Source of the DNA: Dehalococcoidia bacterium
GTDB lineage: Bacteria > Chloroflexota > Dehalococcoidia > Lucifugimonadales > UBA3495
Length of the DNA: 64,000 nt
Direction: 5' to 3'
NCBI GenBank assembly: GCA_965204685.1
Contig: OZ242004.1
Span: forward strand, 1,226,615 to 1,290,614
Position numbers and translations under genes: made by a program. Below are positions 1,202 to 57,923 of the stretch, one piece after another. The notes under the pieces are model-generated. The model had not been told where the DNA came from and did not search any database. It saw only the letters and a program-made list of their open reading frames with translations. Position 1 is the stretch's first letter, and each line of letters opens with the position of its first letter.

Positions 1202-2044
1202 TTACAGAACCTGTTCCGCCAGGCGCTCCAGCTCGCTCAGACCCTCCGCTCCAGCGTCCGGCGGCAGGGCCACCGTGACCCGGTTGGCGCCGGCCTCGCC
1301 GTATCCGGCAATGACCTCCCGGTCCGGCTGGACGTTGGTTACAATGATCTGAATCGTGCTGGGATCCCTGCCGGCGGCCTCGGCCAGTTCGTCCATGGTC
1401 GCGCGACCGGCCCGCACCTGTTCTTCGGTCACCCGCACCGGCATCCAGCCGTCACCCCACGCCACCACGCGCTTGAACACGTTGGCGGCGTAACCTCCGA
1501 GGAGCACCGGCGGATGCGGCTGCTGGACCGGCTTCGGGGAGCATTTGACCGGCGGGAAATCGAAGAAGCGTCCGTGAAACTCCGCTTCTTCTTTGGTCCA
1601 AAGCTCCTTCATTGCCAGGATCGCTTCCCGCGTCTGGCCCCAGCGGTGCTCAAAATCACCGCCCATGATCTCGGTCTCTTCGCGCAGCCAACCCGCGCCG
1701 ATGCCGAACAGGAACCGCCCTCCCGAGAACTTGTCCAGGGTGGCGATCTGCTTGGCTTGCATCAGTGGGTTGTGCTCGGGCACCAGGCTGATGCTGGTGC
1801 CGAGCTTGATGGTGCTGGTGGCCGCGGCCGCCATGGCCAGGGCGATGAGCGGATCGCCAATGTCCGCCATGGAAGCCGGGATCGATCCGTCGGGCGTGCC
1901 ACCGTACCGGGAGGTGGTATGCACAGGAAGGATGGGATGCTCCGGAAGCCAAAACGACTCAAACCCCAGTTCCTCTGCGCGCTTCGCTAATTCTGCCGGG
2001 TCAACCGACTCGCTCGAAGCCCTGGCAGTGACTCCAATATCCAT
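1202..2044 (-). CDS. LLM-class (luciferase-like) F420/flavin-dependent oxidoreductase
   Basis: 280 aa with LLM hallmarks (ELGFESFWLPEH, GRFLFGIGAGW, PKPVQQPHPPVLLGG). Confidence 0.85.
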   Translation of the reverse strand: MDIGVTARASSESVDPAELAKRAEELGFESFWLPEHPILPVHTTSRYGGTPDGSIPASMADIGDPLIALAMAAAATSTIKLGTSISLVPEHNPLMQAKQIATLDKFSGGRFLFGIGAGWLREETEIMGGDFEHRWGQTREAILAMKELWTKEEAEFHGRFFDFPPVKCSPKPVQQPHPPVLLGGYAANVFKRVVAWGDGWMPVRVTEEQVRAGRATMDELAEAAGRDPSTIQIIVTNVQPDREVIAGYGEAGANRVTVALPPDAGAEGLSELERLAEQVL

Positions 2045-2146
2045 TTCGAGACCTCCTCTTGAAAACTTGGCCTGATGTTACCACCGAACGACACCGGATT
2101 CGGATCGTGCCCCGGCGCCATGACGCTTGGTAACAGGCGGTACGCC

Positions 2147-3049
2147 TCAATACTTCCGCAGGGTCGGCGCAGCCACGCCAAGCAACTCCTGCCGCGCAAT
2201 CGACCAGACCCGGGTCAGGGCCTGCTGAACCGCGGCGCAGTCCCGGCCGATCATCTTGACCCCTACGCCGTTGCCGTCGGGCAGCATGGAAGCGCCGGCC
2301 CGAACCTCGAGGCCCGGTTTCAGGTTAGTCCTGACCCGGTCCAGTATCGCGCGGGCGGGCGGGCTTTCACACACGATCAGCAGGGAACCCAGGGTGCGTG
2401 CGGATGCGTCGTCGGCATCCTGCGGGCTCCCGAAGCCCAATATGCCAACCCCCGTGAGGTTGCCCGCTCCCGGGTCCAGGTCGAAGGCTTCCCGGTAGGT
2501 GGGCCGGCCGCTCTGACCTCGAACCGTAACCTGGTTTGAGATCTTCCTGAACCGGAACGACTCCCCCATGGCCACCCTGCCGGGTGTTATCACGTCGCTG
2601 AACAGCAGCGCGCCGCCCGGATCGCAGGCGATGTCAACTTCCTGCTCCAGACTGGCGCCCCGGTAGGGTATCAACGGGTCCGGCAGGTATTCCAGGTACC
2701 CGCCCGGCTCGACGTTGAGGTGCACTCGCTGCTCGGCGACGCCTCCGGTCATCGTGTAGACTTTCGTGGCGCTCTGGGTGGTCACGTGGGCCCTGGCGCC
2801 GTCGCCGATGCTCACCGCGACGCGGTGCCGGTCGTTCTGGAGCAGCCCCCCGGTGGGGTTTGCCAGGAACACGTAGGCTAGGTCGGGCGCGGCCTCGTCC
2901 GGATACAGCGCCTGCTGGACCAGCAGAGGCGGCCGGGTGTGGCAGTGCGTCAGCCGGGTCCGGCCCGCTCTCCGCTCCAGAGCCAGCTCGACGGAACCGT
3001 TTTGGCCGGCCGGCCCGGCTTCAACAGACGGTTCCCGGGCCAACAGCAT
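2147..3049 (-). CDS. ureD: urease accessory protein UreD/UreH
   Basis: UreD-like sequence ([14 protein letters not shown]..., [11 protein letters not shown]) at the end of the ure cluster. Start placed at ATG 3049; the track ORF extends to 3109. Start uncertain. Confidence 0.85.
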
Positions 3050-3644
3050 CGAGGATCCTGTCCAGCACCGCGTCCAGTCCTTCACCCGTGCGGCAGTTGG
3101 TGAACGCATACGGACGCTCTCCCCGAACGATGTTGAGGTCCCGGCGCATCACGTTCAGGTCCGCGCCCACGTAGGGAGCCAGGTCGGTCTTGTTTACCAC
3201 CAGCAGGTCGGTTTGGGTGATGCCCTGTCCGCGCTTGCGGGGTATCTTGTCTCCGGCCGCCACGTCGATCACGTAGATCTGGAAATCGGCCAGCGCCGGG
3301 CTGAAGGTCAGCGTCAGGTTATCGCCGCCGCTTTCGATCAGGACGATATCCGAGTCGGGATATTTCTCGGTCAACTCCTCCACCGCCAGCAGGTTGAGGC
3401 TGGGGTCCTCACGCACCGCCGCGTGGGGGCAGGCTCCCGTGGCGACGCCGCGGATGCGGCCGGTGTCTAGAACTCCCTCCAGGGTCCGCGTGACGTGATC
3501 CGCGTCCTCCCTGGTGAAGATGTCGTTGGTAATGACCACCGGGCGCCGCCCTCGCGCCAGCAGCATAGGCACCAGTTGTTCGACCAGTGTGGTCTTGCCG
3601 GAGCCCACCGGCCCGCCGACGCCAATTCGGGGAACCTTTCTCAT
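3021..3644 (-). CDS. ureG: urease accessory GTPase UreG
   Basis: P-loop [19 protein letters not shown] and NKTDL motifs. Start is ATG 3644 (MRKVPRIGV). The 128-aa N-terminal extension in track ORF 3021..4028 is low-complexity and overlaps the Uma2 gene. Confidence 0.95.
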
Positions 3645-3702
3645 GGTTTCTCTCCACTTTTTGCGGGGTAACCCGGCACGTCCCGGCGCGTTTGCCCGGG
3701 TA

Positions 3703-4440
3703 TCAGCTGTCCCGCAATCGTTGCAGTTCCTCCTCAAGCTCTTGAACCCTGGCTTCGGCTTGGAGGCGTGCTGCACGCTCGGCAAGGCGGCCTTCGCGCT
3801 CGGCAAGGCGCCCCTCCCGCTCGGTGTCAAAGGTGGCGATGTGGTCGCCGGTGTTGGGATCATGCCAGCGCAGGGAACCGTCGGTCCAGAGGAGTTCCAG
3901 GCCGAGGACGGCGCTGTGTCCGCTGAGGTTGCCGTCCGGCAGCTCAATGATCTCGATGGGTTCGTATCTTCCGTCCACCAGCCGGTCGCCGGCCAGGCGG
4001 GAGCCGTGGTACTGTCCGGTTTCGTCAAAACGCCAGTATTCGGCGATACCGAGAGCCGCGTAGGCAGCGCGCTTTTCGCCGGTGTCGGCGCGGCCGGTGG
4101 AGCGGGAAGCGATTTCCAGCACGAAGTCGGGCGGTTTACCCTGTTCGGATATCACGTACCCGTTGTGTTCCTCAAAAGCGATCGGATCGACGTTGAAGGC
4201 TACCAGGAGGTCGGGGTAGAGGACGCCGGTCATGTCGGCTCTTTCTGATGTGGGCACGAGGGTGATGTATCGTTCGGTGGTTACGATGGTAGTCTGTGGG
4301 TTGCCGAGGTGGAGGGCCAGGTGGTGGGCGTGCCCGGTGTCGGTCAACTGTTTGGCGGCGGTCATCTTCTCGTCCGGAGATTTGGGAGGGTCCGGGAGCC
4401 GGAAGGTGGGAGGAGATTTCGGCGATTTGGCGGTGGTCAT
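3703..4440 (-). CDS. Uma2 (DUF820) family putative endonuclease with C-terminal coiled coil
   Basis: Core [36 protein letters not shown] matches the Uma2/restriction-endonuclease-like fold pattern. C-terminus is [23 protein letters not shown]..., encoded by a tandem ~21-nt DNA repeat. Confidence 0.8.
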
Positions 4441-4527
4441 GCTGAAACTCTCCGTGGCGGGTCGGCAAAGCAGTGGGCTATGAAGTGGATTATACCTGCG
4501 CCGGGTTTGACCGTTGCGGCCGCGCCG

Positions 4528-5241
4528 TCAGCTGGCGAACATCCGCACTTCGTCGTGTTCGTGCAGCATGGACGCGATGTCAGTCTGGGGCGCGAAGGAT
4601 GTCATCTCGCGCCAGTCGCGGTGCTGCAAGGCCGTCGTCGCGCCGATCACGGGTTCGTGCAGCGACCGCAGGATATGCTGCGCCTCCGAGTGGGTGACGG
4701 GGAGCAGCCGTTGCGCCGCGCCCAGGACGCCCACGGCAAAGCTGTGACAGAGCATCAGCAGTGTGCTATCCGGGTCGATGCCCGTCGCGCAGGACGCCAC
4801 GCCCAGGGCGACGGCCCCCGTGCCCGGCGTCTCCCGTTCCATTATCGCCCGCCGGAACTTGCTGTGAACGGCGCATCCGGTCGCTCCCGCGAGCAACGGC
4901 GCCGTTTCGTCCAGGATGCGCCGCCCGGCGTGGCAGGAGGCCGCCCGCAGTTCCTCGGGCAGTTTCATCGCGTGCAGGTGCCGGTCGGTGTCAACCAGCG
5001 TTGCCAGGTCGCCGTCCTGCGCAGCGCGGTGGGCATTCAGCAGCGCCACGCCGTCGCACGGCAGGATCGACCAGGTCAGCAGGTTGCGCAAGTACTCCTC
5101 CAGGTCGTCCGCATTGTTGACCCAGCCTCGCGTCACCATTCCTTCCAGACCCTGAGAGTGAGCGTAGGTACCGGACGGGAAGAACGAGTCGGCAAGCTGC
5201 AGTGCGGCGAGGAAGCTGGCGCTGCTGTCCCGGCACGTCAT
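4528..5241 (-). CDS. ureF: urease accessory protein UreF
   Basis: N-terminus LAALQLADSFFPSGTYAHSQGLE is typical of UreF. Lies immediately downstream of ureC. Confidence 0.9.
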   Translation of the reverse strand: MTCRDSSASFLAALQLADSFFPSGTYAHSQGLEGMVTRGWVNNADDLEEYLRNLLTWSILPCDGVALLNAHRAAQDGDLATLVDTDRHLHAMKLPEELRAASCHAGRRILDETAPLLAGATGCAVHSKFRRAIMERETPGTGAVALGVASCATGIDPDSTLLMLCHSFAVGVLGAAQRLLPVTHSEAQHILRSLHEPVIGATTALQHRDWREMTSFAPQTDIASMLHEHDEVRMFAS

Positions 5242-5253
5242 GGTTCACGTCCG

Positions 5254-6972
5254 CTACACCAGAAAGTGCAACTGCGCCAAGCTCAGGCGTTCCGCCGCCG
5301 GCACGGTGGCGATCTCGCCGTCCACGCGCACCGTGTAGGTGTCCGGGTCGACCTCGATCACCGGCATTCCGTCGTTGTGCACCATCTGCCGCTTGGTGAT
5401 GGCGCGGCAATTGCGCACCGGCTCCACTCGCCGGGTCAGCCCCAGGTCGCGGTGAACTCCCGCGTCGTAGGCCGCCTGGGACACGAAGGTCAGCGCCGTA
5501 TTCGCCAACGCCTTGCCCATGTTGCCGAACATGGGGCGATAGAAGGACGGTTCGGCGGTGGGTATGGACCCGTTGGGGTCGCCCATGACCGCCCAGCAGA
5601 TCATCCCGCCTTTGATGATCATCTTGGGCTTCGCGCCGAAGCTTCCCAGCGGCCAAAGCACGATGTCGGCCAGCTTGCCAGGCTCCAGCGACCCCACCAG
5701 GTGCGATATGCCGTGGGTAATGGCCGGGTTGATGGTCAGCTTGGCCAGGTAGCGCAGGACGCGGAAGTTGTCGTGGTCCGGCGAGTCCTCGGGCAGCTTG
5801 CCCTTGAACTGCCGCATCTTGTCGGCAGTCTGGAACAGGCGGGTAAAGTTCTCGCCCACCCGCCCCATCGCCTGCGAGTCCGAGGCGTACATGCTGATGA
5901 CGCCCAGGTCGTGGAGCACATCCTCCGCGGCCATGGTCTCCGGCCGGATGCGGCTCTCGGCAAAGGCCACGTCCTCGGGCACCCGCGGGCTGAGGTGGTG
6001 GCACACCATCAGCATGTCCATGTGCTCGGTGAGCGTGTTGACGGTGTACGGCCGCGTCGGGTTGGTGGATGAGGGCAGCACGTTCGGTTCCGACGCGATG
6101 CGGATGATGTCCGGCGCGTGGCCGCCGCCGGCGCCCTCGGTGTGGTAGGTGTGGATCGCCCGCCCGCCGATGGCGGCGATGGTGTCCTCCACGAACCCCG
6201 CCTCGTTCAGCGTGTCCGTGTGGATCGCCACCGGGATGTCGAACCGGTCGGCCACGGCCAGGCAGCAGTCGATGGCCGCCGGCGTGGTGCCCCAGTCCTC
6301 GTGGAGCTTGAGGCCGCTGGCCCCGGCCGCGATCTGCTCCTCCAGGGGAGCCGGGTCGCTGGCGTTGCCTTTGCCCAGCAGGCCCCAGTTGACCGGCAGC
6401 GGCTCGGCGGCCTCCAGCATCCGCGCGATGTTCCACGGGCCCGGCGTGCAGGTGGTGGCGTTGGTGCCGTCGGCCGGCCCGGTGCCCCCGCCGATCATGG
6501 TGGTGATGCCGTTGGACAGCGCGTGGTACACCTGCTGCGGCGCGATCATGTGGATGTGCGCGTCGACCCCGCCGGGAGTGGCGATCAGGTGCTCGCCGGC
6601 GATAACCTCGGTGCCCGGCCCCACCACCAGGTCGGGATGCACGCCGTCCATGACGTTGGGATTGCCGGACTTGCCCACCGCTACGATGTGCCCGTGGCGC
6701 ACGCCGATATCGGCCTTGATGACTCCCATCATCGGGTCCATGATGATGGTGTTGGTGATGACCAAATCCAGCGCGCCGTTGCGGTTGGTCGTCTCCGACG
6801 CCTGACCCATGCCGTCCCGGGCTGACTTGCCCCCGCCGAAGACCAGTTCGTCGCCGTGGGTGAGCAGGTCGCGCTCGATCTGGCAGACCAGGGACGTGTC
6901 GGCCAGGCGGAACCGGTCTCCCACGGTGGGGCCGTAGAGGTCCACGTATTGCCGGCGGCTGATTCGGGCCAT
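5254..6972 (-). CDS. ureC: urease alpha subunit
   Basis: 572 aa. [26 protein letters not shown]..., HEDWG and MVCHHL motifs. Confidence 0.97.
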
Positions 6973-49569: not shown

Positions 49570-50319
49570 TCAGGTTGTAGTCGAAACGACCTCAAATGCT
49601 GATTGTCTCTTTTCGTCCGTTCGCTCAGACACCGCCTCCACAACGGTCAACGCAACGCCATCCGCGGCGTTTACATGATCCCATATCACGTTGGCGGGGC
49701 TCGGCGGGGCTACAGGCTCGCCACGTGCTGCCAATTCTTCCAGGTGCAGCGCCAGGGCTTTCCGTGCCGCCTCGCATGCTTCCTCAAGGGTGCCGCCGGC
49801 CGTGATGCAGCCGGGGAGGTCCGGGAAACTGACGATAAAACTGTCATTGGGGTTTTGGATCAGCAGTGCAGCATAAGTCTTTCCTGCGCTGGTGTCGGGT
49901 ACAGGTTTGAGCGAGACGGCGGACTGGGGCGGCTCCTCCGGAGACTCGTACAAATTATGCAATTCTTCTTCCGTAAGGGGAGTACCGTAGATCTCCTGGT
50001 ATTCGTCCGAGGCCAGGAATGCTTCCAGCTCCGCCTGCGCTTCCTCCTCGGTACGTTCCGGCAGCGCTTCCACCACGATTAGAGCGATGGCGTAGCCGGC
50101 ATCTTCGTGGGCCAACGCTGCATCCGGGGAGCAGGGTAGAGGAATGTGCTCCCCATCGGCGGCCATTCCTTCCAAGTGAAGCGCAAGCGCCTCACGCGCC
50201 ATCTCGCGGGCTTCTTCAAAAGTATCGCCCCCGGACGTGCAGCCAAGGAAATCGGGGAACGTCACCCCGAAACTGCTGTCCGGATCTTTGTGTATGAAGG
50301 CCAGGTAGGTTCGTTCCAT
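49570..50319 (-). CDS. hicB: HicB-family antitoxin with two tandem HicB N-terminal domains
   Basis: Two homologous halves: YLAFIHKDPDSSFGVTFPDFLGCTSGGDTFEEAREMAREALALHLEG and YAALLIQNPNDSFIVSFPDLPGCITAGGTLEEACEAARKALALHLEE. No recognisable DNA-binding tail. Confidence 0.8.
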   Translation of the reverse strand: MERTYLAFIHKDPDSSFGVTFPDFLGCTSGGDTFEEAREMAREALALHLEGMAADGEHIPLPCSPDAALAHEDAGYAIALIVVEALPERTEEEAQAELEAFLASDEYQEIYGTPLTEEELHNLYESPEEPPQSAVSLKPVPDTSAGKTYAALLIQNPNDSFIVSFPDLPGCITAGGTLEEACEAARKALALHLEELAARGEPVAPPSPANVIWDHVNAADGVALTVVEAVSERTDEKRQSAFEVVSTTT

Positions 50320-50321
50320 CG

Positions 50322-50522
50322 CTACCTCCTTTGCCGTCGCAGCCTCACGCCAGACTGCTTTTCAATGTTCAGCAAGGTTCCTATTGGGACGTCCTGCTGC
50401 GGATGAGTTACTGTGGTGGTGCCTGGTTTATCGGGATGTTTCATTTGATGATGGGAGCCAACGATACGATGCACGTACCATCCCTCTGCCCTCAATAGTC
50501 GCATGACCTCTCGACTGTGCAT
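50322..50522 (-). CDS. hicA: HicA-family mRNA interferase toxin
   Basis: REVMRLLRAEGWYVHRIVGSHHQMKHPDKPGTTTVTHPQQDVPIGTLLNIEKQSG is a canonical HicA pattern. Start ATG 50522 (alternative 50504). Stop is 2 nt before hicB. Confidence 0.8.
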   Translation of the reverse strand: MHSREVMRLLRAEGWYVHRIVGSHHQMKHPDKPGTTTVTHPQQDVPIGTLLNIEKQSGVRLRRQRR

Positions 50523-50596
50523 TGGCGCATTATACACCGCGACCCTTCCGTACCTGCGTTGCGCCATCGGGCGGCCGTCGGTATCCTTGCCTTGCC

Positions 50597-51906: not shown

Positions 51907-52875
51907 ATGAAAGGCATACGCGCCTACGAAGTTGGCGGACCCGACGTGCTGAAATATGAGGATATGCCCGAACCCACCGCCGGACCGGGCGAAGCAATCG
52001 TTGCCATCCGCAACATTGGCGTCAACTACACCGACGTCTCCAGCCGCAAGGGTACCAACCCGCCGGCGGCTTTCCCCTGGACGCCCGGCCGCGAGGCCTC
52101 GGGCGAGGTGATTGCCGTGGGTGACGGTGTGACGGAGGTCAGCGTGGGCGACCGGGTTGCCTACGCCATGCACACCGGGTCCTACTCCGAGCAACAGGCC
52201 GTACCCGCCTGGCTGCTGGTTCGCATCCCTGACGACATGGACTTCGAGACCGGCGCGGCCACCCTGCTCCAGTGTATGACCGCCCACTTCCTGGTCAACG
52301 ACATCGCGTCGCTGCAGGCCGGCCAGAGCGCGCTGGTGCACGCCGGCGCCGGTGGGATGGGCCTGCTGCTCATCCAGATGCTGAAGCGCATGGGCCTCCA
52401 CGTGTACACGACGGTATCCACTGACGAGAAGGCGGCGATGGCCCGCGGCGCGGGCGCCGATGACGTCATCCTGTACACCCAGCAGGACTTCGAGGAAGAA
52501 GTCCGCCGGATGACCGACGGCCAGGGCGTCAAGATCATCTACGACGCCGTGGGCGCAACGACCTTTGAGAAGGGCCTGCGCGTCCTGGGTCGGCGGGGCT
52601 GCATGGCGCTGTACGGGCAGGCCGGCGGCCCGGTGGGAGCGGTGGACTCGGGGATGCTGCGCAACGGCTCGCTGTTCCTCACCCGCCCTACCCTGGGAGA
52701 CTACACCGCCACGCGCGAAGAGCTGCTGCAGCGCGCGGAGGAATGCCTGGATTGGGTACAGTCGGGCGAGGTCAAGCTGAACGTCAGCCTGAACCTGCCG
52801 CTGTCGGACGCCGCCGAGGCCCACCGCCGCCTGGAGGGGAGGGAGACTACAGGGAAGATACTGCTGACGCCGTGA
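51907..52875 (+). CDS. NADPH:quinone oxidoreductase (zinc-type ADH/MDR family)
   Basis: MKGIRAYEVGGPDVLKYEDMPEP..., GREASGEVIAVG and AGAGGMGLLLIQ. Confidence 0.9.
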   Translation: MKGIRAYEVGGPDVLKYEDMPEPTAGPGEAIVAIRNIGVNYTDVSSRKGTNPPAAFPWTPGREASGEVIAVGDGVTEVSVGDRVAYAMHTGSYSEQQAVPAWLLVRIPDDMDFETGAATLLQCMTAHFLVNDIASLQAGQSALVHAGAGGMGLLLIQMLKRMGLHVYTTVSTDEKAAMARGAGADDVILYTQQDFEEEVRRMTDGQGVKIIYDAVGATTFEKGLRVLGRRGCMALYGQAGGPVGAVDSGMLRNGSLFLTRPTLGDYTATREELLQRAEECLDWVQSGEVKLNVSLNLPLSDAAEAHRRLEGRETTGKILLTP

Positions 52876-52933
52876 TATGCTCGCTATATCCAGTCTGTCG
52901 CATCCTGCCGCGGGCCGATCCAAGGGAGGGAAA

Positions 52934-53251
52934 ATGACTGAGCCCGCCAAACCTCAACGGATTTACTACACCTGCACTACCGCAGAGTTCAAAGAGCAGT
53001 GCCTCGAAATCATCGCGGAACTTGTTGAGTGCGACGGAGAGGTGATCATCTTCGACGGAGATGAGCCTGTAGTTCAAATTACCCGATACCAGGAAGTACA
53101 CGACCCTCTCCGAGGTTCGCTCAAGGGTCGTGTGCAGATTCACGGCGACATCGTATCCCCGCTGCCACCGGAATGGTACGCCTTGCGCACCGACCAGGAT
53201 GAGGAGTGGTACGGTCCATATACTGGCCAAGATGAGGAGCGCCCTGCTTGA
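52934..53251 (+). CDS. Phd/YefM-type antitoxin
   Basis: 105 aa. GGGAGGG RBS. The C-terminal ...LKGRVQIHGDIVSPLPPEW is typical of PIN-partner antitoxins. 4-nt overlap with the PIN gene. Confidence 0.7.
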   Translation: MTEPAKPQRIYYTCTTAEFKEQCLEIIAELVECDGEVIIFDGDEPVVQITRYQEVHDPLRGSLKGRVQIHGDIVSPLPPEWYALRTDQDEEWYGPYTGQDEERPA

Positions 53252-53646
53252 TACTGCCGGACACTTACACCCTGATTTGGTATATGGAAGCTAACTCCAG
53301 GCTGGGTAAGGAAGCAAGCGCCAGAATCGAAAGAGCCAAACGACGAGGCGATGCCGCTTTCTCCGCCATCTCCGTCTGGGAAGTAGCCCTGCTGCTGTCC
53401 AAAAACCGCCTCACGTTAGACGTCACCGCCATCCAGTGGCGTCAAAGCCTCCTCGCCGCCGGACTCATTGAAATCCCGGTTGACGGCGCAATTGCCGCCC
53501 GCTCCGTCGCCTTGACCGATTTCCACGACGACCCCGCCGACCGCATCATCATCGCCACCGCCCAGGAGGGACACCAACTGATCACTGGCGATCGTCACAT
53601 CCTGGACTGGACCGGCCGACTCAACCGGTTCCCGGCTCGCCGCTAA
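53248..53646 (+). CDS. vapC: PIN-domain toxin (VapC family)
   Basis: ILPDTYTLIWYM..., SVWEVALL and DPADRIIIATA...ITGDRHI: PIN acidic residues. TTG start. Confidence 0.85.
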   Translation: MILPDTYTLIWYMEANSRLGKEASARIERAKRRGDAAFSAISVWEVALLLSKNRLTLDVTAIQWRQSLLAAGLIEIPVDGAIAARSVALTDFHDDPADRIIIATAQEGHQLITGDRHILDWTGRLNRFPARR

Positions 53647-54540
53647 ATGGAGCCAATATCAATGCTCAACACGGTCGTCCATACCGGGGATCTCACGCCA
53701 CCGATCCAATCTTTGGAAGATTACTTCCGCAAAGGCGGAGTTTCCATCATTCAAGCCGCCTTCGCGCATTCGTACTTTGTTCACCCGGACGAAGTGCGGG
53801 CAAAGACGCCCTATTTCCCAGACCGTGCCCGATACAGTCGCCGACACTACCCAGGGCTTGATAAGGGGCAGCAAACCGTGTGGCCGGGCGATGGGCGGGA
53901 AATTCGTCTGGACGACAACCAGTACGCTCAGAATGCTTGGGCTCAGTACACCGGGCGTAACATTGAGCGGCGTACCGGCTACAGCTTACGCCACATCTGG
54001 GGAAATACACATAATCCGGATGCGTTCACGGCCGGCTGGAATTTCTGCTATATGCCCTTTTGGGCTGGTATGTTGACAGAAGACCAGAATCCGCACCCGG
54101 AACTACAATTGGCCATCTGTCAAGCTTCGTGGGAACTTTACTTTCGAGACTACCCTGTCTGTCAACCGCCGAACTTCGTTGAAAACCCGGGCATGGACTT
54201 GGATACCACGCTACGCGGGCAACCGCTGCTGATTCTGGCACGGGTAGCACCAGCAAACCCGAAGCGCACCAGACGAACTACAGGGCAAGATGCAATACTT
54301 CCCATCACTCTCGAACCATCGTCCCCAGAAACTTTCAAAGACGCCTTGCTACGCACCAAACAAGCGTGGATAGTGGTGACGTATTTGGATGGCAGTGAAA
54401 AAGTACGTCTCTGGAATGCCGAGCGGATTTCACCATCATCCAAAATAATGGGCAACCTCAGAAGCCGGCCTGAATTCCGAGCCGGCGCATGGCAACGAAA
54501 TGGCATCGTCAGCGTGCTGGTGAGCATAGAAAAGCCATAG
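53647..54540 (+). CDS. hypothetical protein (297 aa), no family recognised
   Basis: Its ATG directly abuts the vapC TAA stop. Clearly AT-richer than the genome background by eye. Realistic amino-acid composition. There is a weak HNH-like 'RHIWGNTHNP...WNF' segment, not reliable enough for a call. Confidence 0.6.
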   Translation: MEPISMLNTVVHTGDLTPPIQSLEDYFRKGGVSIIQAAFAHSYFVHPDEVRAKTPYFPDRARYSRRHYPGLDKGQQTVWPGDGREIRLDDNQYAQNAWAQYTGRNIERRTGYSLRHIWGNTHNPDAFTAGWNFCYMPFWAGMLTEDQNPHPELQLAICQASWELYFRDYPVCQPPNFVENPGMDLDTTLRGQPLLILARVAPANPKRTRRTTGQDAILPITLEPSSPETFKDALLRTKQAWIVVTYLDGSEKVRLWNAERISPSSKIMGNLRSRPEFRAGAWQRNGIVSVLVSIEKP

Positions 54541-54562
54541 GCCCGACTGCACCGCATGGACG

Positions 54563-54591
54563 TTGACGCCCCCAACCGCCCGCCATACAAT
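54563..54591 (+). promoter_or_regulatory. sigma70-type promoter candidate for the trpE leader
   Basis: TTGACG (54563-54568), 17-nt spacer, TACAAT (54586-54591), about 35 nt upstream of T-box Stem I. Confidence 0.55.
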
Positions 54592-54626
54592 TGATCCCGC
54601 AAATCCGAATACCCACAAGCCGTGAA

Positions 54627-54858
54627 GGGGGTTAGTACGCGTCCAGCGAGGCCCAGAGAGCCGGAGTAGCTGTGAACCGGCGCCAGGCGCAGACGTTGAA
54701 TGGACCCCGGAGCCGCCCGTTGAAAGGCTGCAACCTGACCCGGTTGCGGGGCCGAGTAGGACGGGCCGCATGGGCCGCGTTATCCGCCCGCCGAACACCG
54801 TACGCAGGGTGGCATCGCGGCCTACAGGCTCGTCCCGCAGGGGACGGGCTTTTCTTTT
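54627..54858 (+). promoter_or_regulatory. T-box riboswitch leader, Trp (UGG) specifier, with terminator
   Basis: Stem I has the S-turn AGUA (54634-54637) / GAA (54698-54700), specifier UGG (54701-54703) plus A, and distal AGAGAG / GUGAACCGG motifs. T-box sequence GGGTGGCATCGCGG lies at 54807-54820. Terminator AGGCTCGTCCC-GCAG-GGGACGGGCT plus TTTCTTTT lies at 54826-54858. Confidence 0.8.
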
Positions 54859-54892
54859 GCCGCTGCCGCCCAACACAGTTGGAAATCATCAC

Positions 54893-56353
54893 ATGAGCAA
54901 CTACTATCCCAGCCTCGATCAGGTCCGCGCCCTAGCCGGACAGGGCAACCTGTGCCCCATATACCGGACCATCAACGCCGACCTGGAAACTCCCGTATCG
55001 GCCTATCTGAAGGTGGCGCGTCCACCCTACTCTTTCCTGCTGGAATCGGTGGCCGGCGGCGAGCGCATCGGCCGCTACAGTTTCATCGGCACCGAGCCCT
55101 ACGACGTGTTCAGCACCGGTGACGACCAGCCCTCGGGCACGGTGGACCCGCTGACCCTGGTGCAGCGTGAAATGGACACCTTCCGGCTGGTTCCCGTGGA
55201 GGGTCTGCCGCCGTTCCACGGGGGAGGCGTCGGCTATGTCGCCTACGACGCCGTGCACTACTTCGAGCCGCGCGTGCCCATGCCTGAGGCCGACCCCCAG
55301 GGTCTGCCCGAATCGGTCTTCATGTTCACCGACACGCTGCTGGTGTTCGACCATCTGCGCCACGATATCAAGGTGGTGAGCCACGCCCGGCTGGACGGCG
55401 GCGACGTTGCCGAGGCCTACGCCGCGGCCACCGCCAAGATCGAGCGAATGGTCGACCGGCTCTCCCGGCCGCTGGAAATCCCGCCGGAACTGCTGGCGAC
55501 ACCCGCGCTCCCGTCCGGCGGAGAGACCCAGTCAAACTTCACTGTGCCGGAATACGAAGCTGTCATCGAGAAGTGCATTGAGTACATCTACGCCGGCGAC
55601 GTCATACAGGTGGTGAACTCCCAGCGGTTCAGCCGTCACACCGACGCCCACCCCTTCCAGGTATACCGGGCCCTGCGGGGCAGCAACCCGTCGCCGTATA
55701 TGTACTACCTTGACCTCAACGGGTTCCAGATCGTCGGCGCCGCCATCGAGACCGTGGCCACGGTTCACGACGGCACCGTCTCCACCCATCCCATCGCCGG
55801 CACGCGCCCGCGCGGCCAGACGCCAGCCGAGGACCTGGCCCTGGAAGAAGAGCTGAAGGGCAGCGAGAAGCAGCGGGCCGAACACATCATGCTCCTCGAC
55901 CTGGGACGCAACGACATCGGCCGCGTGAGCGTGCCGGGCACCGTCAGCGTCACACAATACATGGACGTGGAGCGGTTCTCCCACGTCATGCATCTGGTGT
56001 CCCACGTGGAAGGGCAGCTCAAGCCCGAGATGACCCCCTACGACGCCCTGCGCGCCTGCTTCCCTGCCGGCACCGTCTCCGGCGCGCCCAAGATACGCGC
56101 CATGGAGATTATCGCCGAGGTGGAGCAGGAGCGGCGCGGACCCTACGGCGGCGCGGTGGCCTACTTCAGCTACAACGGCAACATGGACACCGCCCTGGTC
56201 CTGCGCACCGGCATCTTCAAGGACGGCGTCATGTACGTCCAGGCCGGCGGCGGCGTGGTCGCCGACAGCGTGGCCGAGGATGAGTACATGGAGACCCGGC
56301 ACAAGTCGGGCGCCATGATGCGCGCCATTGACGTTGCCGAGGGCGCCGCGTAA
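54893..56353 (+). CDS. trpE: anthranilate synthase component I
   Basis: 486 aa. LCPIYRTINADLETPVSAY, LLESVAGGERIGRYSFIG and the C-terminal chorismate-binding motifs (GAPKIRAMEII, RGPYGGAV). The Trp T-box upstream supports TrpE over PabB. Confidence 0.93.
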   Translation: MSNYYPSLDQVRALAGQGNLCPIYRTINADLETPVSAYLKVARPPYSFLLESVAGGERIGRYSFIGTEPYDVFSTGDDQPSGTVDPLTLVQREMDTFRLVPVEGLPPFHGGGVGYVAYDAVHYFEPRVPMPEADPQGLPESVFMFTDTLLVFDHLRHDIKVVSHARLDGGDVAEAYAAATAKIERMVDRLSRPLEIPPELLATPALPSGGETQSNFTVPEYEAVIEKCIEYIYAGDVIQVVNSQRFSRHTDAHPFQVYRALRGSNPSPYMYYLDLNGFQIVGAAIETVATVHDGTVSTHPIAGTRPRGQTPAEDLALEEELKGSEKQRAEHIMLLDLGRNDIGRVSVPGTVSVTQYMDVERFSHVMHLVSHVEGQLKPEMTPYDALRACFPAGTVSGAPKIRAMEIIAEVEQERRGPYGGAVAYFSYNGNMDTALVLRTGIFKDGVMYVQAGGGVVADSVAEDEYMETRHKSGAMMRAIDVAEGAA

Positions 56354-56404
56354 CCGCTATTGCGCTCGCTCGACAGTGAACCTGACGAGAATCATAATCC
56401 GTCA

Positions 56405-56770
56405 ATGCAATTTGTGGTTCGATTTCATCCGGACTTCGAACCCGAATTCGATGCGTTGTCTGAAGCCGTTCGGGAGGCGTTTTTGCAGAGAGCGCGATTG
56501 TTGCAATCACAAGGACCGTTGTTGGGACGTCCCAATGTGGATAACCTGCAACTGTCCAAGTATCCCAGAATGAAAGAACTGCGGTTCAACGCTGATGGGG
56601 GCGTGTGGAGAGTGGCTTTCACCTTTGACGCCAACAGGGATGCGATTTTCCTGGCGGATGGTGATAAGTTCGGTTTCGGTAAGCGGAGTTTCTACCGTCG
56701 GTTGGTGGAGAAGGCGGATCAACGATACGCCCAACACGCCGCGCGCCTGCATCGAGAAGGAGCCGGGTAG
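56405..56770 (+). CDS. RelE/ParE-superfamily toxin, Gp49/HigB-like
   Basis: MQFVVRFHPDFEPEFDAL..., LRFNADGGVWRVAFTFDANRDAIFLADGDK and FYRRLVEKADQRYAQH are typical of Gp49-type toxins. Confidence 0.78.
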   Translation: MQFVVRFHPDFEPEFDALSEAVREAFLQRARLLQSQGPLLGRPNVDNLQLSKYPRMKELRFNADGGVWRVAFTFDANRDAIFLADGDKFGFGKRSFYRRLVEKADQRYAQHAARLHREGAG

Positions 56771-57204: not shown

Positions 57205-57573
57205 ATGCTGTCCCCGGAGCAAATCCAGGAAGTCCGGAATAAAGTCTGGCTTGCCGACCAGGCCATGGCCCAGCGCGACCATGAATTGTTCTGCAAACGC
57301 ATCTGGGAAGCCACTGCTCACGCCATCAAGTGCGTTGCCCGAAAACGCGGCTGGCCTTGTCAGACTTTTGACGAGATTTACGCCGCCGGCCGGCGGATTG
57401 CCAAAGCCCATCCTGAACAGCGTGGTTTCATGTCCGCGTTGGGCTGCGCCGACCTGGCCCGAACCAATGGGATGGGGCTCGCTATACCCGCCCAGGATGT
57501 GGAAGAGGACTGGGACATCTCTACCGGGTTCATTGATCGTATGTTGGGTTTCTCAGTGCGCGACGTGTCATGA
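57205..57573 (+). CDS. hypothetical helical protein (122 aa), PaREP1/HEPN-like four-helix-bundle pattern (tentative)
   Basis: GGAG RBS 7 nt upstream of ATG 57205, with TATAAT at 57166-57171. The pattern ...IWEATAHAIKCVARKRGW...IAKAH... parallels the next ORF. ATGA overlap with it. Confidence 0.55.
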   Translation: MLSPEQIQEVRNKVWLADQAMAQRDHELFCKRIWEATAHAIKCVARKRGWPCQTFDEIYAAGRRIAKAHPEQRGFMSALGCADLARTNGMGLAIPAQDVEEDWDISTGFIDRMLGFSVRDVS

Positions 57574-57923
57574 CATCGACAGAGCGGCTCCGTACATCCA
57601 CTGAATTGTCTTTGCTCGCCGAGCAGCACTTTGTCAATGGCGACGATATGGCAGGAGCCGAATTGCTCTGGGGCGCATTGTCGCAGGTCATCATCGCCAT
57701 AGCCATGCGGCGCGGACAACGGTATCAGGAACATCAACATCGTCGCCACGTGATGCGCCAAATAATCGCCGAGATTGACGACCCGGTAATTGTTGAAGAC
57801 TACAAAGATGCGAACCGGCTCCACGTCCATATTTACCTGAACAATATGACGGATGTTCAAGTTCGAGACGCGGCTGATACCACCCGCGCCCTCATCAACC
57901 GCCTCCTCCCTCTTGCCGCCTGA
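57570..57923 (+). CDS. hypothetical helical protein (117 aa), paralog of the preceding ORF
   Basis: ...AELLWGALSQVIIAIAMRRGQRYQEHQH...ANRLHVHIYLNNMT...ALINRLLPLAA. Contains an R-x5-H stretch. Family assignment is tentative. Confidence 0.55.
   Translation: MTSTERLRTSTELSLLAEQHFVNGDDMAGAELLWGALSQVIIAIAMRRGQRYQEHQHRRHVMRQIIAEIDDPVIVEDYKDANRLHVHIYLNNMTDVQVRDAADTTRALINRLLPLAA

Follow-up and report, generated by a model that had tools for sequence, protein, structure and literature searches.

We find that the low-G+C patch at positions 52934–54540 of the 64,000-nucleotide stretch of Dehalococcoidia DNA analysed here (the window), flanked upstream by the gene qor and downstream by trpE, most plausibly combines two things set side by side: a Phd/VapC toxin–antitoxin (TA) pair, and an independent cassette with a third gene, here called X, that would be a stand-alone, horizontally mobile, nuclease-type conflict gene. 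We place the probability of this reading at roughly 60%. Its parts differ in strength: X is very probably a unit separable from the TA pair, and a nuclease role for X stands at even odds. The three closely packed + strand open reading frames (ORFs), and the segment that comes and goes among relatives, are the following.

52934..53251, + strand: antitoxin gene, 105 aa, probably of a divergent Phd/YefM-like type; C-terminal tail acidic
53248..53646, + strand: VapC-type PIN toxin gene, 132 aa, TTG start
53662..54540, + strand: gene X, of a two-domain family; 292 aa from its probable start, 297 aa from the ATG at 53647
53644..54560, + strand: X cassette, approximate extent; the segment missing from X-less alleles of close relatives

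An earlier reading of this DNA, made from its letters alone (the sequence-only reading), had described three tightly packed ORFs, a 4-nt overlap between the antitoxin and PIN genes, and a 297-aa ORF (53647–54540) whose ATG directly follows the vapC TAA. The ORF coordinates bear this out, the PIN TTG start overlapping the antitoxin stop by 4 nt (cTTGAt), although the true start of X is probably a second ATG, at 53662. Its view that the module is poorer in G+C than its flanks also holds in computed profiles: the module has a G+C of 0.559 and a third-position G+C (GC3) of 0.60, against 0.672 in qor and 0.661 in trpE with GC3 of 0.86–0.87, and no sliding 1,607-nt stretch of the 64-kb window (median 0.65) has a lower G+C. 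The two larger claims that it built on this layout, acquisition of the three genes as one unit and a candidate three-component system, find no support in comparison with relatives.

Three states of the qor–trpE site are found. The window and six loci carry the TA pair followed by X; one locus (L002) has an intact X directly after qor and no TA pair; and in metatranscriptome contigs that share about 95% identity with the window, qor, antitoxin and PIN are followed by the trpE leader, X being skipped. The X-less metatranscriptome contigs join position 53610 to 54561, X-less metagenome contigs join 53636 to 54579, and the letters between the joints encode a homologous PIN C-terminus. Because the PIN frame of these alleles ends with that homologous C-terminus, its stop lying in a −35 box, X is a clean indel of about 0.9 kb reaching from the PIN stop to the trpE promoter, which closes the insertion slot on the right.

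54563..54591, + strand: promoter-like site of the trpE leader (TTGACG, 17 nt, TACAAT); right-hand boundary of the insertion slot, outside the module

The PIN TGA of the X-less alleles falls inside the −35 hexamer TTGACG of this leader promoter, so that neither spacer nor terminator separates the TA operon from the trpE T-box leader; in both alleles, read-through out of the operon and into this leader is possible. The two forms also occur together: in two sponge metagenomes (DNA runs X4 and X5) the X-less form, at a depth of 22–26, accompanies the X-bearing form at about 10.5.

X has, moreover, changed while its neighbours stayed. At locus L019, qor, trpE, antitoxin and PIN are 92–98% identical to those of the window, whereas the N-terminal domain of X is only 74% identical and is followed by a different C-terminal domain; with X so divergent beside near-identical flanks and pair, X must have been exchanged independently of the TA genes. 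Together with the X-only and TA-only alleles at the same site, this exchange argues against acquisition of the three genes as one unit. A further syntenic relative (L014, 5158–5994) holds a truncated PIN fragment, a RuvX-like gene and a window-type PIN remnant between qor and a frameshifted X: here the site is an insertion hot-spot that has been rearranged repeatedly.

A scan of one genome per species gave 79 X loci. A window-type antitoxin/PIN pair lies upstream of X at six of these, with one remnant besides, all at the syntenic qor–trpE site; since they share this chromosomal site in related Dehalococcoidia, the six count as one evolutionary event. The roughly 70 non-syntenic loci have unrelated, mostly housekeeping neighbours, with some Uma2, BrxL, ResIII/UvrD helicases and transposases, and no methyltransferase is among the 25 commonest families of their 151 neighbouring ORFs. 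PIN genes account for 2 of 68 upstream and 3 of 83 downstream neighbours (5 of 151); X homologues are found mostly without TA genes, which is in substance what the sequence-only reading had said would speak against its proposal.

These counts bear directly on the idea that the three genes form one functional system, X acting for example as a sensor or second effector under TA control. The locus itself lends that idea some appeal, with a spacer of only 15 nt, a conserved Shine–Dalgarno site, no separate promoter or terminator, and an arrangement retained in six related genomes; elsewhere, PIN genes of other types stand beside X (upstream in L060/L066, downstream in L005), and PIN is slightly commoner near X than in a distal control. 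We nevertheless consider a three-gene system very improbable, because X-only and TA-only alleles occupy the same locus and X-bearing and X-less alleles the same metagenomes, because X was replaced without the pair in L019, and because some 70 loci in other lineages lack such a pair, which keeps company with X at one syntenic locus only. None of the three module proteins matched PADLOC at E ≤ 0.1, and chance adjacency is easy in a window with three other TA-like islets (HicAB, Gp49 and PaREP1).

Some observations weigh against so clean a separation. PIN, Gp49 and PaREP1 are all somewhat commoner beside X than in the distal control, a set of 150 ORFs lying over 3 kb off, where PIN is not among the families seen at least twice and so makes up at most 1 of the 150; a mild enrichment of TA genes beside X is possible, and the PIN–X arrangements of L060/L066 and L005 are independent of that in the window. 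A loose functional or selective link between X and TA genes accordingly keeps some room, even if the differing type and side of the neighbouring PINs suggest shared insertion hot-spots rather than a conserved operon. The data, too, have their grain: gene calls in relatives were crude choices among ORFs, Logan contigs speak to the presence of a form and not to its abundance, and contigs from 'RNA' runs, which at the qor–trpE site come from an X-less relative, possibly contain DNA.

Taken by itself, X is a member of a sizeable family with a consistent start. Nearly all homologues begin at the residue matching Met6 of the 297-aa ORF, and the PIN–X junctions of L001, L003, L019, L023 and L024 keep the GGAG and the downstream ATG while the upstream ATG is not kept; on these grounds the true start is probably ATG 53662, which leaves 15 nt, with the Shine–Dalgarno site, between the PIN stop and X.

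53649..53652, + strand: Shine–Dalgarno GGAG for X, 9 nt before ATG 53662; conserved in syntenic relatives
53662..54243, + strand: X N-domain, residues 6–199, about 195 aa; predicted catalytic domain
54295..54537, + strand: X C-terminal module (C-module), residues 217–297, LPITLEP...YxDG...GNLRSRPEFR...W; promiscuous domain

The sequence-only reading had called the 297-aa product an orphan of no recognised family. The second half of that description stands: X has no match in Pfam, NCBIfam, PADLOC or PHROGs, and a profile of the full family returned only noise from the PDB. The first half does not, for a word-indexed search of clusters at 90% identity recovered 665 homologues at E ≤ 1e-3, and an exhaustive search of 50%-identity representatives 503; every homologue with a source name is labelled 'hypothetical protein'. 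The division into an N-terminal part of about 190 aa and a separate small C-terminal domain, noted at the same time, reappears in our alignments as a strongly conserved N-domain joined by a linker to a C-terminal part, of which at least two unrelated forms exist.

The conserved residues of the N-domain suggest what it may do. Across a 47-sequence alignment that reaches down to 25% identity, H116 (53992–53994), W118, T128, N132 (54040–54042) and P137 are invariant, with D90, N91, E145 (54079–54081) and Q147 nearly so. The AlphaFold2 model of the N-domain from this alignment has a mean pLDDT (predicted local distance difference test) of 95 and a pTM (predicted template-modelling score) of 0.89; a first model, from 39 close homologues, had a pLDDT of 40–60 exactly over the conserved motif and was discarded for this domain. 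H116 is predicted to end strand 107–111 and N132 to precede strand 128–132 (strands in model numbering), with helices next, an arrangement that would correspond to the β-β-α unit of a ββα-Me site. The RHIWG...GWN stretch that had been singled out as weakly HNH-like thus contains the only invariant His and Asn of the family, placed by the model on a predicted β-β-α unit.

Confident as it is, the predicted N-domain has no significant structural neighbour. Foldseek searches of the N-domain model against the PDB and BFVD gave best E values of 1.2 and 0.2, respectively, with TM-scores of at most 0.25, and on the model's evidence the fold as a whole appears new. The top matches, all below threshold, are in both libraries mostly HNH proteins: colicin E7, ScoMcrA, HNH Cascade, and phage HNH or homing endonucleases. 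A search with the full-length model was dominated by insignificant β-grasp/superantigen matches to the C-module and was rejected. The layout of residues, these sub-threshold matches and the domain partners described below together argue, short of demonstrated homology, for a nuclease.

Several results pull the other way. Neither in sequence nor in structure does X significantly match HNH or any other nuclease, and the profile search of the PDB came back empty on this point as well; alignment by hhalign of the X family with an HNH protein that shares its C-module (P0200) brought together the shared module alone; and the residue preceding the invariant His is not conserved, nor are canonical HNH metal ligands evident. 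The want of evident ligands, that of significant nuclease homology and an N-domain fold without a PDB neighbour would all suit an X that is no nuclease, rather a DNA-binding regulator or some other enzyme, strain-variable by chance. We regard this as quite unlikely, given that the few invariants include a His and an Asn on the predicted β-β-α unit, that sub-threshold matches in two independent libraries are consistently HNH, and that the partners of both domains (Mrr_N for the N-domain; HNH, HSDR_N and HEPN proteins sharing the C-module) are typical of conflict-system effectors.

Those partners are specific. In two relatives, P0132 and P0135, the N-domain follows an Mrr_N winged helix, which is absent from X of the window and was seen in these two only; Mrr proteins carry their nuclease after Mrr_N, in the very place that the N-domain holds in P0132 and P0135. 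The C-module, about 80 aa with a pLDDT above 85 in the full-length model, also ends proteins whose N-termini are HNH, HSDR_N, HEPN_Swt1, SLFN_AlbA_2 or Pkinase (Ser/Thr kinase) domains, a company of HNH, HSDR_N, HEPN, Schlafen/AlbA_2 and kinase partners that we count in favour of a nuclease-type conflict role; most other proteins with the module have N-termini without a Pfam match. The module itself has no Pfam or significant PDB match and resembles no recognised reader of modified DNA (SRA, SBD or PUA-type). Its one sequence hint in the PDB, to the 81-aa uncharacterised protein 2ldm over the YxVxYxDG hairpin (E = 1), is insignificant and too weak for use.

Two other settings of these domains were seen along the way. 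At L082, an HNH protein that ends in the X C-module (6001–6954) lies 38 nt behind an SNF2/ResIII helicase gene, itself preceded by two BrxC/BrxD-like ATPase genes (genes at 1408–5963), and the same 13 kb hold a PhdYeFM/PIN pair, a tyrosine integrase and a Mu-type transposase; the region looks like a defence island that uses the C-module in a multi-gene system. In Acidimicrobiia sponge symbionts (L059, L061, L063, L067 and L068; for example, L059, 5470–6564) the N-domain carries an N-terminal extension of about 150 aa, faintly similar to phage-integrase SAM-like (core-binding) domains, and is without the C-module; the place of the extension is taken in L060 and L066 by a PIN gene that stands separately (139 aa).

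The distribution of X points to horizontal movement. The 79 loci fall in Chloroflexota, Alpha- and Gammaproteobacteria, Actinomycetota, Binatota and Acidobacteriota, nearly all in metagenome-assembled genomes (MAGs), of which many can be recognised as sponge symbionts by name or source. For the N-domain, a maximum-likelihood tree requires 9 phylum changes against a minimum of 4 and includes well-supported mixed pairs, such as Gammaproteobacteria with Binatota and Alpha- with Gammaproteobacteria; sister sequences of the syntenic clade can differ in C-terminal type. Four MAGs hold two X copies at different sites (L008/L012, L011/L013, L021/L074 and L038/L065), and no fewer than 11 of the 79 copies are disrupted, whether by frameshifts, stops or insertions (300–600 bp in L073 and L074), some of them possibly assembly errors. 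As to how X moves, direct and inverted repeats, attC-like ends and insertion-sequence-like ends were sought around it and gave short matches at chance level only. Co-orientation of X with its upstream gene, seen at 48 of 66 loci, was rejected as evidence for a cassette mechanism, that being about the background presumed for bacteria. Metatranscriptome contigs of up to 2.7 kb from runs X25–X28 match only 53909–53941 and 54024–54077 of X, at less than 90% identity; matches confined to this most conserved stretch of X indicate other members of the X family in those RNA libraries, whether through expression or DNA carry-over.

Such a pattern could also be left by a purely selfish, free-standing homing-type endonuclease, one that cuts the X-less allele close to where X inserts and is copied in by repair, its exchangeable C-terminal domains setting the target. 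The precise presence/absence polymorphism between conserved genes in co-existing strains is what homing would produce, as are a single promoter-less gene diverging far more than its flanks, the C-terminal swap in the syntenic clade, the multiple copies in some genomes and the frequent pseudogenes; the best sub-threshold structural matches among viral proteins, moreover, are HNH homing endonucleases. Fusion of the C-module to HEPN RNase, kinase and Schlafen-type domains nevertheless fits a sensor or regulator better than a reader of DNA targets, and the Mrr_N fusions point to restriction-type enzymes. The insertion contexts of X are many and unrelated, no flanking repeats or recognisable target were found, and no association with phages, introns or inteins was seen; on balance, homing in this strict sense is unlikely.

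Of the two units, the TA pair is the more conventional. The PIN assignment made by the sequence-only reading is confirmed by a Pfam match to PF01850 (E = 2.8e-10; 41.3 bits against a cut-off of 23.6; profile positions 1–114 of 120), and the acidic residues D5, E45, D98 and D115 are present in the translation. The Phd-type label given to gene 1 is upheld indirectly: the protein has no direct Pfam match, but a profile built from it and six syntenic relatives reaches dozens of PF02604 (PhdYeFM) 'prevent-host-death' proteins at E values of 1e-18 to 1e-12, so that gene 1 is probably Phd/YefM-like as judged from this profile. An hhalign comparison of the antitoxin with one PF02604 antitoxin was negative, and a search of the PDB with its profile returned noise alone. 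The gene is preceded by a ribosome-binding-site-like GGGAGGG (52925–52931); the pair is kept in the six relatives, and the long acidic C-terminal tail of the antitoxin is confined to the closest of them.

Three more TA-like islets of lowered G+C lie within a few kilobases of the module, at 49570–50567, 56360–56770 and 57570–57923; by Pfam they comprise HicA with a double-HicB protein, a Gp49/HigB-like gene and a PaREP1-family gene, and small accessory inserts alternate in this region with housekeeping genes, patchwork fashion. Within 52700–54950, scanned for promoter-like and terminator-like sites, the trpE leader site is the sole promoter-like site, and X is flanked on its own strand by neither kind of site. 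With no other promoter-like site in this interval, and no + strand terminator after X, transcription of X probably comes from upstream, and in this genome X is probably co-transcribed with the antitoxin/PIN pair, as far as such signals can tell.

We therefore favour, of the possibilities weighed, the TA pair beside an independent X cassette, which would work as follows. The low-G+C patch would be a composite, lodged at an insertion hot-spot that lies, in this sponge-associated Dehalococcoidia genome, between qor and the trpE leader. Its first unit would be a conventional type II TA operon, with a divergent Phd/YefM-like antitoxin and a VapC-type PIN RNase; its second, an independent, promoter-less single-gene cassette encoding X. 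The N-domain of X may be a metal-dependent nuclease with an HNH-like β-β-α core, in which H116 would be the general base, N132 the structural Asn, and either E145/Q147 or D90/N91 the metal ligands, with the interchangeable C-module as a putative targeting or sensing domain. X would act alone, like a solitary type IV restriction-like or defence nuclease behaving selfishly, and would spread horizontally among unrelated bacteria that share sponge hosts; its expression here, by read-through from the TA (or qor) promoter, would be owed to its landing site. Gene structure, composition, the independence of the two units, the size and spread of the family and the domain fusions are observed; nuclease activity, a part in defence and co-transcription are inferred.

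A bolder version of this picture is possible, although we hold it doubtful: that X represents a new single-gene nuclease-type conflict or defence family whose catalytic fold, with no solved relative, has just an HNH-like β-β-α core, bearing a new promiscuous sensor or targeting C-module that would also arm HNH, PD-(D/E)xK, HEPN, Schlafen and kinase effectors; that this family, carried by a promoter-less cassette, travels among at least five phyla in sponge microbiomes; and that expression of X is tied here to the autoregulated TA promoter, activation of the TA pair thereby switching X on as well.

A three-component system would have been a new defence architecture, and the evidence against it spares bench work on the wrong hypothesis. 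What takes its place is a sizeable protein family that every annotation library used here had missed, with a confidently predicted and apparently new fold, which has crossed phylum boundaries among sponge symbionts. Should the nuclease and defence role prove true, X would bring to prokaryotic immunity a catalytic family and an accessory module that are both new, and would serve as a concrete marker of gene flow within sponge holobionts. Two studies report an enrichment of restriction-modification, TA and other defence genes in sponge symbiont genomes (PMC5649159, PMC5099237), and both units fit that description.

Among known systems, the TA pair is closest to VapBC type II systems with a Phd/YefM antitoxin. 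It shares with them a small antitoxin gene overlapping the PIN toxin gene by 4 nt, the acidic quartet of the PIN domain and residence in a low-G+C accessory islet; it differs in an antitoxin too divergent for a direct PF02604 match, and is otherwise ordinary. From what is established for VapBC systems, the toxin of the pair would be neutralised by its antitoxin, and the two in complex would repress their own promoter. Tripartite TA modules and TA-linked defence systems (toxin–antitoxin–chaperone modules; TA-like operons in PADLOC) resemble the locus in having a gapless, co-oriented third gene after a TA pair, whereas X is not conserved with the pair beyond one syntenic locus, either unit occurs alone, and PADLOC offers no match.

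For X, the nearer comparisons are with solitary enzymes. Phage free-standing HNH homing endonucleases, such as the Mob family of T4, are like X in being small single genes set between conserved genes, present or absent among close relatives, with a nuclease-like core and a variable second domain, and they resemble it weakly in structure; X differs in being chromosomal, in spanning several phyla with no phage context, and in a C-module common to RNase and kinase proteins. Type IV restriction enzymes (Mrr, McrA, ScoMcrA) likewise combine a nuclease-like domain with an exchangeable one in a single polypeptide and, like X, stand without an evident methyltransferase partner; the Mrr_N winged helix occurs in some relatives within the X family, and the HNH domain of ScoMcrA is among the best, if insignificant, structural matches of the N-domain. 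In contrast to these enzymes, the N-domain matches no Mrr_cat or HNH model and X has no recognisable SRA, SBD or PUA-type reader. Set among these relatives in kind, X is an undescribed family that plausibly works as the known solitary nucleases do.

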